A DNA stretch of 64,000 nucleotides. Source: Bryobacterales bacterium (lineage in GTDB: Bacteria; Acidobacteriota; Terriglobia; Bryobacterales; UBA6623). Positions 51,067-53,858 of this stretch are shown in pieces. The position numbers and the translations under genes were made by a program. Location: NCBI GenBank assembly GCA_965205595.1, contig CBDBHI010000020.1:82056-146055 (forward strand), written 5' to 3'. Under the pieces are notes generated by a model that was not told where the DNA came from, did no database searches, and saw only the letters and a program-made list of their open reading frames with translations. Position 1 is the first letter of the stretch; each line of letters opens with the position of its first letter.

Positions 51067-51533
51067 TAACGCCAACGGCACATGCGATTGCGACACACTC
51101 GTCATCTTTCGCAGCCGTTCCCGCTCACGCCCGACCGATTTCGCCGACGGGCTCCTGTTCCAATACCCCCACTCCCTGGCTAGCAGGTCGCGGTCCCATC
51201 GAAACAGGTAGCCCAAAAACTCAAGGCTCGCTCCTGCTTCCCTCAGTTCCACCACGCGGGTCTTCTCCCGGTTCAGCTTCAATCCCATCCAGACTTCCAA
51301 CTTCTCTTCGATAAACGCTTCCAGCGCTACGTCCCGCCCCTTCATCATCACAACGAAGTCGGCGGCGTATCGCACCAGTTTCGCGCTCCCTCCCCGCGCC
51401 GGACTCGCCCGATGTCTGAGAAACACCTTGTCGAACCCGTGCAGATATGAGTTCGCCAACAGCGGAGTGATGACGCCGCGAACGCAAAAGGTAACTTTGT
51501 GTTTGATCGGGAATTGCGGTATCGATAATGCGC

Positions 51534-51572
51534 TTGAGATGTGTCATGTACAGTTGTATTCTTATGACATAT
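51534..51572 (+). promoter_or_regulatory. Putative sigma70 promoter overlapped by an inverted repeat
   Basis: TTGAGA (51534-39), 17 bp, TATTCT (51557-62); TGTCAT...ATGACA inverted repeat at 51542-47 and 51564-69; ATG at 51571. Confidence 0.6.
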
Positions 51573-51900
51573 GGGTCGTGCCGGCGACGCCCAAAAAGCC
51601 GAGCGTCTCAATCGCGCTCGCCGCTTGCTGCAACAGTTCGACCATCTGCCCGACGCCGTCGAAGAGATGGTGCGAGACTGCCGCATCTCTCCCCGCCAGG
51701 CATATCGTTACCTCGAACAAGCGCAGCGTCTGAAGCAGCCCCTTGCTGTTGGCGATGCCAAGGTCGCCTTTACGGTGAAGGTGTCGCGGAGTTTGGTCGA
51801 ACGCGTGCGTTCCCACGCCGCCGCTACCGGGACGTCTCTCAGCGAGGTCGTCTCGCGAGCTTTGCTTGCGCTGCTCGATCGGAGACGGGGGCGTGGCTGA
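51571..51900 (+). CDS. Small DNA-binding protein (HTH-like + ribbon-helix-helix-like)
   Basis: ISPRQAYRYLEQA (HTH-like) and FTVKVSRSLVERVRSHAAATGTSLSEVVSRAL (RHH-like). Confidence 0.75.
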   Translation: MGRAGDAQKAERLNRARRLLQQFDHLPDAVEEMVRDCRISPRQAYRYLEQAQRLKQPLAVGDAKVAFTVKVSRSLVERVRSHAAATGTSLSEVVSRALLALLDRRRGRG

Positions 51901-52171
51901 GCAGCAGGCCGGCCAGGAACTCGCGCTTCGATTCGAATATCGGTTTGATCGTTTACTGCCCGCTAAGCCGGCCCAGGTTTACCAGTTGCCGGCGCCCGAG
52001 CAGCGATGGCCAATCGGCCAATCGCATCCCCAGGAGAAGATCCATGAACAAAGCTGCCGCCATCTACGCTCGCGTCTCTTCGAATCGTCAGAAGGACAAT
52101 CACACGATCGCCTCTCAGACAGCCGCACTGAGGCAGTATGCCCAGACGAACGGGTACGCAGTGCCGGCTGA
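51893..52171 (+). CDS. Small hypothetical protein overlapping the recombinase start
   Basis: GTG start overlapping the upstream stop; LRFEYRFDRLLP..AQVYQL; overlaps the recombinase by 128 nt in another frame. Confidence 0.5.
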   Translation: MAEQQAGQELALRFEYRFDRLLPAKPAQVYQLPAPEQRWPIGQSHPQEKIHEQSCRHLRSRLFESSEGQSHDRLSDSRTEAVCPDERVRSAG

Positions 52172-53858
52172 GTGGGTGTTCGAGGACGAAGGCTACAGTG
52201 GAGCCAACTTGGCGCGACCCGGCTTGGAAGCCCTGCGCGATCTGGCGGCGGAAGGGCGGATTGAAGCGGCGCTGGCTTACTCGCCGGACCGGCTTAGTCG
52301 CAAATATGCGTATCAAGTCCTGTTAACCGAAGAACTCTCGCGCTGTGGGGTGGAGTTGATTTTCTTGAAGTCGGCGGCGGGGAGCACGCCTGAAGATCAG
52401 TTGCTGGTGCAGTTTCAAGGCATGATCGCCGAGTACGAGCGGGCGCGGATCGCTGAGCGCTCGCGGCGGGGCAAACGGCACAAGGCCCAGCAGGGAGTGG
52501 CGAACGGACTCTCGGGTGCGCCTTACGGGTATCGCTATGTGAAGAGGAGCGAGCGTTCAGAGGCTTACTATGAGGTGCTCGACGCGGAAGCGCGGGTGGT
52601 GCGAGAAGTGTTTGAGCTGTACAGCGAGCAACGCTTGAGCATCAACGCCATCGCTCGTCTACTGAACGAGCGGCAGATTCCCACGCGAACCGGGAAGACA
52701 CGCTGGGAGCGCTCGACGGTTTGGGGGATGCTGCGGAATCCGGCTTATCACGGCGTGGCTTGCTACGGCAAGACCCGGCTGCGGCCTCGTCAACGCATCA
52801 CTCGGCCGCTGCGTCTGCGCCAGGGAGCGCCGAGTCGAGACAGCGCCACTCAGCAGCGGCCGCGGCAAGAATGGATCGAGATTCGGGTACCGGCGCTGGT
52901 CGCCGAAGAGACCTTTGCGCTCGCTCAGGAGCAGTTAGAGAGCAACAAAAAGCACTCGCCACGGCGCACCGTCGAGCCGACGCTGCTGCAGGGGATGTTG
53001 GTGTGCCGGCAGTGTGGTTACGCTCTGTACCGAGTTTCGACACGGACATCGAAACGAAGGCTGTCCTATTACCGTTGCCTCGGCTCGGACGCCTATCGGC
53101 ACCTGCAGGGAGCGTTGTGCACCAACCGACCCATCCGGCAAGATTCGTTGGATGAGGTTGTCTGGAGGGCGATCATCGAGTTACTCGACGATCCGTCGCT
53201 GATCCGTTCGGAGATCGAGCGTCGCATGGAGGTCGCCCAGAACGCCGATCCACGGCGCAGACGAGAGGCCGACTTGCGACGGGAGCGGGTGCGCTTGGAG
53301 AACGGTGCCGAGCGGTTGGTGATCGCTTACCAAGAAGGACTGCTGACGCTGGCCGAGCTGCGCCAACGAATGCCTCCTCTGCGCAAGCAGCAGCAGGCGA
53401 TCGAATCTGAGTTACACTCCCTCGAGATGGCGGCTGAGGATCAGTCTAAATACCTAAGGCTGACGGAAACGCTGGGGGAGTTTCGCGCCAACTTGCAAGC
53501 GCGGGCTGACTCCCTCGATGTGAGAGAACGCCAGAAGATTCTCCGGTTACTCGTAAAGGAAGTCCTTGTCGACCGCGAGACGGTCACGATCCGGCATTCG
53601 ATTCCGATCCCTCCATCCGCTCCGCTTTCCGGCGGTTCGCCATCCCCAAACTCCGGCCCGGGGGACTCGATCGTCCCAAGTTACCTTTTTCGTTCGCGGA
53701 GTCTTCACTCCACCTTGCGGCGTTCCCTTCCTGCTGCGTTCTCCTCGGTCCTTCCCTTCTCCGCGCTCGCCCTCTTCCACCACCGGCGCTTCCAGCCACA
53801 GCCGTATCCGCTTCACGACGGATCGATCCGCGATCCGGTGCCGCACGCACGCCAGTAG
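52044..53858 (+). CDS. Large serine recombinase (resolvase + recombinase + Zn-ribbon + coiled coil)
   Basis: AAIYARVSS catalytic motif, [41 protein letters not shown] caggag; the ORF reads through attR. Confidence 0.97.

Follow-up and report, generated by a model that had tools for sequence, protein, structure and literature searches.

The closest described systems to the element reported here are the transposons Tn4451/Tn4453 and Tn5397, in which a large serine recombinase (LSR), TnpX or TndX, acts as the transposase. Tn4451 and Tn5397 span 6-21 kb, carry resistance or transfer genes and use a GA core at the crossover, and circle formation by Tn4451 alters the expression of tnpX through a promoter located at the junction. 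Elements of the Tn4451 type are excised and integrated through a site made of their joined ends, and their target looks like the junction of the circle (Crellin & Rood 1997, in the account given by PMC2475636). Furthermore, neither TnpX nor TndX needs a transposon-encoded accessory factor (PMC2475636), and the DUF4368 domain is common in the multi-targeting LSR clade of these two enzymes (PMC10083194). We describe here a compact LSR element of 2,232 bp found in a stretch of 64,000 nt from a Bryobacterales bacterium of the Acidobacteriota (the window; contig CBDBHI010000020.1 of assembly GCA_965205595.1, positions 82,056 to 146,055 of the forward strand), where it occupies positions 51472-53703 and interrupts the reverse transcriptase (RT) gene of a group II intron. 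Comparison with its relatives makes it very probable that this is an autonomous three-gene LSR element of insertion sequence (IS) size, which homes to one motif of intron RT genes through the cycle proposed below.

As a kind, LSR-driven integrative or transposable elements are already known, and the unusual features of this one are its target, which is a coding motif of a retroelement, its IS-like size together with two accessory genes, a recombinase gene split by attP, and a palindromic and often unequal core. Like the TnpX and TndX transposons, the element has a target that resembles its own joined-end site (inner attP GGAGTC-AT-GACTCC, attB GGNGTN-AT-NNNNCC). It differs from them by its 2.2 kb devoid of cargo and its two small accessory genes, by an AT core instead of GA, by the absence of DUF4368 from its LSR (Pfam search) and by a target that is a protein-coding motif of another mobile element; in contrast to the effect on tnpX in Tn4451, circle formation would here complete the recombinase open reading frame (ORF). 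With the phage serine integrases (phiC31, Bxb1, A118 and SPbeta SprA), the LSR shares the domain architecture and an attP made of imperfect inverted repeats around a 2-bp crossover, but it comes without a phage, the cores frequently differ between the two junctions, attB and attP are alike, and the core is palindromic, with insertions seen in both orientations; by the rule given in PMC2475636, a palindromic core abolishes polarity.

In the window, the element sits between the codons for GTPQGGV and ITPLLAN of the minus-strand RT, as proposed by an earlier note made from the letters of this DNA alone. Its ends are marked by an inverted repeat of 34 nt (51464-51497 and 53678-53711) that is 91% complementary and whose motif occurs in the window at these two places only, with none expected by chance. 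The outermost part of this repeat belongs to the target and is a direct reading on both sides: half-site B (GGAGTG, 51464..51469) lies inside the minus-strand RT codons Ile-Thr-Pro, and half-site B' (CACTCC, 53706..53711) corresponds to the minus-strand codons for Gly-Val of PQGGV. The arms of the element itself are 26 nt long, match at 24 positions and each adjoin a 2-bp core. The left arm (P' arm of attP, 51472..51497, plus strand) is kept across the family as ...ACGCAAAAGRTAACTT, and the right arm (P arm, 53678..53703, plus strand) also encodes the recombinase residues ...SYLFRSRS. The left core is AT (51470..51471), placed by arm symmetry and by the family junction table, and the right core, read directly, is TT (53704..53705) and so differs from the left one. 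All coding between the arms is on the plus strand. In-silico deletion of 51472-53703 together with one junction dinucleotide, AT being kept, yields a continuous frame of 345 aa that reads ...GTPQGGV/ITPLLAN... (here and below a slash within a target marks the insertion point), so that the rebuilding of the RT frame announced by the note was borne out. As the two junction dinucleotides differ, AT and TT, the 14-bp palindromic target GGAGTG-AT-CACTCC that it reconstructed stands only if the left AT is the original target core, a choice that the family data favor.

Homologs of the LSR are numerous, with more than 8,000 at E <= 1e-20, and the best 120 of them share 71-99% identity and measure 555-736 aa. 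A collection with one genome for each species contains 561 matched stretches that code for a relative, and examination of the best 80 loci led to a junction table of 70 insertions, window included, in which both junctions could be read by means of the conserved arm motifs. An RT gene is interrupted in 54 of the 70. The two RT halves flank the element on its own strand in 27 insertions and on the opposite strand, as in the window, in 15; two N-halves lie head to head in three, two C-halves in another three, and RT is recognizable on one side only, owing to a contig end or to decay, in six. The remainder comprises a second target class (10/70) and insertions elsewhere (6/70). The check proposed beforehand, namely whether the flanks of homologs are RT halves split at the same codon, therefore came out positive for 54 of the 70 genomic insertions, in either orientation. 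What would have spoken against the RT association, homologs at unrelated sites, was found in part: most insertions are in RT genes, but about 14% use the second target and a few are off-target. In metagenomes, the read-through tails of the recombinases among the best 120 homologs (102 classifiable) look like sense RT in 57 and like antisense RT in 33, as judged by loose patterns.

The arm-to-arm length of the 70 copies is 2.22-2.30 kb. This bears on the idea that the element is the end of a larger prophage or of an ICE (integrative and conjugative element) whose integrase uses the RT gene as attB, an idea that draws on the fact that LSRs are typical integrases of phages and ICEs. We consider it extremely unlikely, as both RT halves are found 2.23 kb apart, phage and transfer genes are absent, and a viral contig collection holds no relative.

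The sites rebuilt by removing the element read GTPQGGV/ISPLLAN or near variants and give an uninterrupted RVT_1 domain (profile positions 1-205), with GIIM in some. Group II D1-D4 Rfam matches, belonging to four D1-D4 sub-families, lie beside the element in all 12 loci tested, and RF00029 is matched in seven of these 12. The consensus of the RT flanks, CCgCAaGGcGg.gtg / ...CC..TgcT.gccAA, retains only codon-fixed bases, so that it is the coding motif, and not any one intron, that is recognized. The same data bear on a transposon of low specificity, of the IS607 or TndX kind, whose link with RT would be a sampling artefact. The element resembles IS607 in being IS-sized and moved by a serine recombinase, IS607 is known for its low target specificity, and some copies do lie in other genes. 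This explanation is nevertheless hardly credible: 54 of the 70 insertions are at the same codon of RT genes otherwise unrelated in DNA, their flanks keep nothing beyond the bases fixed by the PQGG..SPLLAN codons, and the enzyme has the LSR architecture. Indeed, IS607 TnpA is small, with an N-terminal helix-turn-helix DNA-binding domain before the catalytic domain, whereas the catalytic domain is N-terminal in this LSR of more than 550 aa, and the match to the IS607 model, confined to the catalytic domain, reaches 40 bits where the cut-off is 110.

Several genomes document recent movement. In seven genomes with several copies, the elements are 98.5-100% identical (except for one divergent copy at 92.5%), while the flanking introns, at about 50-60%, are essentially unrelated. 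One Acidobacteriota genome contains the same intron in three states: empty (GGGCCA-AT-CAGCCC), filled (L048) and filled in the opposite orientation (L050). These near-identical copies in unrelated introns and empty paralogous sites show that the element moves on its own. An element acting as mere cargo, able to spread solely when its host intron retrohomes with the help of RT in trans, would account for its position in the intron ORF region, where introns tolerate some cargo, and several genomes do hold intact intron copies able to provide RT in trans. We nonetheless hold such a passenger to be very improbable, as the elements are identical where the flanking introns are unrelated, as one intron is both empty and filled both ways, and as some insertions are outside introns altogether; passive spread is thus contradicted as the sole route, and occasional co-mobility with the intron is possible. 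Taken together, the identity of the copies, the three states of one intron and an off-intron copy lead us to exclude that the element spreads passively with the intron, that it is a piece of something larger and that its association with RT genes is due to chance, and to retain an autonomous element. Furthermore, in a set made up of L043, L045 and L052 (OY762456.1), of L004, L058 and L069, and of L009, L053 and L074, several copies join the N-half of one intron to the C-half of another, and others have flanks of N/N or C/C type; these mixed, N/N and C/C flanks point to genome rearrangements mediated by copies of the element.

The crossover core was compared in 41 complete and non-redundant RT insertions, written in RT orientation. 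Both junctions carry AT in 18 of them and the same non-AT pair (GT, GC or CT) in eight, so that the 2-bp core, expected of LSRs to recur at both junctions, is identical in 26 insertions and unequal in 15. Counted by position over RT-class elements only, since the outer asymmetric positions and the clade of the second target would inflate the numbers, mismatches between junctions affect 19 of 86 core positions and 51 of 989 inner arm positions (Fisher p = 5e-7). The excess at the core indicates that the unequal cores are not the product of ordinary decay. The three-state intron is instructive in this respect: the empty paralog (in L049) has an AT core, and the filled copies L048 and L050 carry CT/AT or AT/CT, as expected from replicated heteroduplex joints had a CT-core attP recombined with an AT-core attB. 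By the same token, the AT/TT of the window and the TT/GT of its close relative L001 (97% identical) suggest that the attP core of this lineage is TT. As regards orientation, 27 insertions in RT are sense and 15 antisense (binomial p = 0.09), and the occurrence of both fits a palindromic AT core. The arms are clearly symmetrical around a 2-bp core; the predicted recombination of attP with attB at a central dinucleotide would have to accommodate insertion in both orientations and cores that are not always matched.

The recombinase gene itself crosses attP. It has no stop codon inside the element, and in the window its frame runs on into antisense RT sequence up to 53858. Its detached 3' end, 18 codons (DAANAKGNFVFDRELRYR) followed by TAA, is found at 51472..51528 on the plus strand and is in frame with the body of the gene only when the right end joins the left end. 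In every element examined, the LSR frame enters the left arm across the joined ends and stops after 18-32 codons, and the resulting tail peptide is conserved (..NAK(D/G)NFxF(D/E)Rx...), with a short form that ends in YR and a long form with GWR....DLRRKR at its end. Past the repeat, the variability of the tail is highest at third codon positions, with entropies of 1.08/0.91/1.55 for the three positions. This passage of the frame into a conserved tail places attP inside the recombinase gene, and the reading frames indicate that a complete LSR gene exists only across joined ends, be it in a circle or in a tandem. The tail of the integrated enzyme depends on the flank, which explains the 555-736-aa spread of the homologs and their modal length of 559 aa; in the 559-aa form, a sense RT flank supplies the TAA, for example from GCT-AAY or TCT-AAY. 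The integrases of Mx8 and SSV1 are tyrosine recombinases with attP inside the int gene, where integration splits the gene or changes its 3' end. The likeness lies in integrated and free forms encoding different recombinases, and the differences are that Mx8 and SSV1 are viruses and not IS-sized elements and that their enzymes belong to another superfamily.

Joined ends, with the right arm, 2 nt and the left arm in the exact 10+2+10 inner spacing, were found in three metagenome contigs (L082 3555-3598, L083 747-790 and L081 1441-1484), which substantiates the proposal of a 26-bp inverted-repeat attP around a 2-bp core. In L081, the LSR frame reads through the joint into the conserved tail. At least two of the three contigs are head-to-tail tandems inside a chromosome. 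In another locus (L038 4420-8973), two copies of the element lie head to head, about 90 nt apart; this pair and the tandems suggest insertion next to, or into, resident copies.

The annotation of the window and its relatives agree with the earlier description of a three-gene unit without replication or transfer genes. The first gene (51571..51900, plus strand) encodes a 109-aa protein with a C-terminal ribbon-helix-helix (RHH) domain of the CopG type (PF01402, E = 1.1e-5). It is present in nearly every related locus that covers the region upstream of the recombinase gene, is labeled as a CopG-family protein in the RefSeq plasmid copies, and gave nothing useful against NCBIfam. Upstream of it, a sigma-70-like promoter match (TTGAGA-17-TATTCT, 51534..51562, plus strand) is weak, with one site found for 0.5 expected. 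The second gene, ORF3 (51893..52171, plus strand), encodes an orphan protein of 92 aa and shares nucleotides with both neighbors, with the RHH stop at its GTG start and with the start of the recombinase gene at its 3' end. Between these two neighbors, the spacer (RHH stop to recombinase start) measures 122-161 nt and equals 2 mod 3 in 57 of 59 distinct elements, and frame +1 relative to the RHH gene contains [FY][DE]RL in 59/59, as the core of a conserved LEYxFDRLLxxKLxQxYxLLVPD-like block. The codon-position entropy of ORF3 is 0.84/0.67/1.47, and a conserved ATG or GTG that overlaps the RHH stop was found in the copies examined. Although ORF3 matches no Pfam and no NCBIfam family, this conservation marks it as a genuine coding gene for a conserved orphan protein. 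Two other readings of the region were rejected: a long open frame of about 170-190 codons that precedes the recombinase gene, shares its frame and overlaps the RHH gene has a translation that, unlike that of ORF3 in frame +1, is unconserved between distant elements, and programmed frameshifting from RHH through ORF3 to LSR is unneeded, given the conserved ATG/GTG of ORF3 and, in the window, an LSR start ATG after a Shine-Dalgarno-like GGAG.

The third gene is the LSR, whose body comprises 553 codons (52044..53703, plus strand). Its N-terminus carries the catalytic motif AIYARVSS, and the three Pfam domains of LSRs are recognized: Resolvase (PF00239, residues 5-152, E = 1.3e-34), Recombinase (PF07508, E = 1.3e-22) and Zn_ribbon_recom (PF13408, E = 2.5e-13). 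The protein aligns distantly to SPbeta SprA (residues 57-523) and to the A118 integrase (residues 285-517), and is the equivalog of no named NCBIfam family.

These data allow us to propose a cycle. The LSR would excise the element as a circle, in which the two 26-bp arms around the 2-bp core form attP, and would reinsert it by a 2-bp staggered exchange into attB, that is, the DNA for block 4 of group II intron RTs (CCN CAR GGN GGN GTN / AT H WSN CCN, encoding PQGGV/ISP), which the inner attP arms would mimic. With the usual palindromic AT core, insertion could occur in either orientation. It splits the RT, which would be whole again after exact excision. The full LSR, with its conserved tail of 18-31 residues, would be encoded by the circular or tandem form alone, the integrated form having an arbitrary, flank-encoded tail. 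The RHH and ORF3 proteins may act as a regulator and/or a directionality factor, and the LSR may tolerate mismatches in the core. We infer, in line with the earlier note, that insertion would be neutral for the host and would disable the mobility of the intron.

Several observations weigh against this cycle or complicate it. About 23% of the insertions lie outside RT genes. Unequal cores concern 15 of the 41 RT insertions, the window with AT/TT among them, and as mismatched overhangs inhibit joining by phiC31-type integrases, for which a non-palindromic core sets polarity (PMC2475636), either the present enzyme accepts a single mismatch or recombination between copies makes the cores unequal afterwards. 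One insertion (L057) with GT/GT beside an AT empty paralog does not fit simple heteroduplex segregation and therefore calls for mismatch repair or a native GT site. The evidence for free circles amounts to the three exact-pattern metagenome matches, which come without identical contig ends and are tandems or indistinguishable from tandems. Finally, in the copy of the window the arms mismatch at two positions, the cores are unequal and Leu is twice replaced by Pro in ORF3; this copy may be impaired or defective.

The insertions outside RT genes are for the most part the work of one sub-clade. Its LSRs are about 65% identical to that of the window, its inner arms read ..ACAGTC, and its members (L031 and L033-L041; for example L035, with junctions at about 4393 and 6662) insert in either orientation at LGNIVPGV/(F/Y)TPVLAKH of a 145-185-aa hypothetical protein. 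Uninterrupted homologs of this protein (P0131, P0139 and P0158) carry the rebuilt junction intact, and 4,219 homologs were found at E <= 0.001, the best 120 being 87-96% identical to the query. One homolog, examined with its surroundings (P0158; L084-L089), belongs to an island that also contains a DUF932 gene and a tyrosine integrase. In DNA sequence, the second site, GGCGTG-TA-CACTCC, resembles the RT site, and the sub-clade looks like a case of retargeting to the gene of another mobile element. A structural RNA or rRNA gene, suspected from ORFs 88-96% identical across thousands of contigs, was rejected as the nature of this target, Rfam being empty in the seven loci. A different case is L012 (junctions at about 4404 and 6665), where a MacB/FtsX-type permease gene is interrupted at GQEAD/EYTPIGQ with unequal cores, AA/TG; this copy is 100% identical to two RT-borne copies of the same genome, which identifies it as a recent off-target insertion into a host gene.

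The host intron of the window is decayed and extends on the minus strand over 50577..55194, the GTGCG at 55194 being its likely 5' end. The N-terminal part of its RT, ending in GTPQGGV, lies at 53706..54188 (RVT_1 profile positions 1-127, E = 8.7e-19), and the C-terminal part, starting with ITPLLAN, at 50965..51471 (profile positions 127-203), followed on the same strand by a GIIM maturase domain (Pfam, 50917-50696) and by a match to the Rfam family Intron_gpII, which covers the ribozyme 3' region (RF00029, 50659-50577). It bears three lesions: at 50917-51067, the maturase region is interrupted by a palindromic insertion of 151 bp whose terminal inverted repeats (GGGGCTGTGAAAAAACCTC...) are 29 nt long; at 54423-54827, 206 bp are duplicated in tandem (54423-54621 and 54629-54827, 97% identical), over the intron's 5' part and the beginning of the RT; and the RT frame is broken near 54190-54240. 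The first of these looks like a miniature inverted-repeat transposable element; no second copy was found in the window or in the fetched loci. Because of these lesions, we consider that the intron is dead independently of the element.

This last point is relevant to a further explanation, that of a domesticated, gene-interrupting excision element serving as a reversible RT switch for the host or the intron, after the fashion of skin (SpoIVCA) in sigK or of the fdxN element (XisF). The parallel consists of an LSR element inside a coding sequence whose exact excision would restore the gene, as it would restore the RT frame here, and XisF is indeed the best NCBIfam match of the LSR, though with 119 bits against a cut-off of 375 and without equivalog status. 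However, skin and the fdxN element are single-copy, domesticated and developmentally regulated, whereas the present family is multi-copy and recently mobile and targets a selfish retroelement. Many identical copies per genome, in unrelated introns and both orientations, off-target insertions in a second gene family and in the gene for the MacB-type permease, a membership of thousands in several phyla and a host intron already dead from other lesions make such a switch very improbable. An autonomous element homing to the RT motif accounts better for these data.

As to the element of the window, all three reading frames are open. In ORF3, Pro occupies two positions where almost every other copy has Leu (KPAQVYQLPAPE; L001, a 97% relative, has KLAQVYQLLAPE). 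The 279-kb contig P0001 encodes a recombinase that is 99% identical and ends in the same read-through tail, and this shared tail indicates that the insertion of the window is old and common to a close relative.

Members of the family are found in Acidobacteriota, Alpha- and Gammaproteobacteria, Desulfobacterales, Nitrospirota, Gemmatimonadota, Planctomycetota, Binatia and Actinomycetota, with the closest relatives in Bryobacterales. Cultured strains are among the carriers, with copies on plasmids. Plasmid pUSDA76 of Bradyrhizobium elkanii USDA 76 (L090, record 209389-216936) carries an intact copy of 2,234 bp at about 212.3-214.5 kb, antisense in RT and with an AT/AT core, and pRZP1 of Rhodococcus sp. 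ZPP (Actinomycetota) a copy in sense orientation at GTPQGAP/VSPVLAN. In pUSDA76, the occupied intron is itself nested in an IS66-family element, so that mobile elements are nested three deep on this conjugative symbiosis plasmid. Matches on pWW53 and pDK1 (41% identity) were set aside as belonging to a different LSR group devoid of the RHH gene.

While the family is very common, with several identical copies in some genomes, it has no annotation as a unit, RefSeq labeling its pieces separately as 'recombinase', 'CopG' and 'reverse transcriptase domain'. A search of the full-text literature found no serine-recombinase element in group II intron RT genes, most subscription journals being outside its coverage, so that an earlier report is possible; a large LSR survey never mentions reverse transcriptase (PMC10083194). 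On balance, we lean slightly toward the view that these elements form a previously unrecognized, phylum-spanning family of LSR transposons that are obligate parasites of mobile elements, characterized by homing to an RT motif, one retargeted sub-clade, an enzyme gene split by attP and a palindromic, mismatch-tolerant core that each insertion could rewrite. In such a family, a DNA transposon would take a retroelement's most conserved coding motif as its universal and host-neutral landing pad, which could explain its spread across phyla and would limit the mobility of the introns. Among serine integrases, a palindromic core, unequal core pairs and a recombinase gene running across attP are out of the ordinary, and they turn polarity, mismatch tolerance and directionality into testable questions. 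On the practical side, the family offers compact LSRs whose attP is defined (54 bp) and whose attB is a natural site, and many 'fragmented RT' calls in soil genomes are introns split by such elements.

Two minor observations concern the surroundings of these elements. A second, distant LSR gene (about 24% identical) adjoins some copies (L077 3189-4088, L071 1309-2214 and L007 3412-4959) and, in L077, forms an in-frame fusion with a truncated RT just upstream of PQGG; it may represent another recombinase element that uses intron RT genes. In the window, a direct repeat of about 175 nt, for which an Rfam scan of the copy at 48345-48520 (the only copy scanned) gave no match, recurs 7 kb away at 55394-55556 with 87-94% identity, and the two copies bracket deacetylase and ROK-kinase genes together with the intron.

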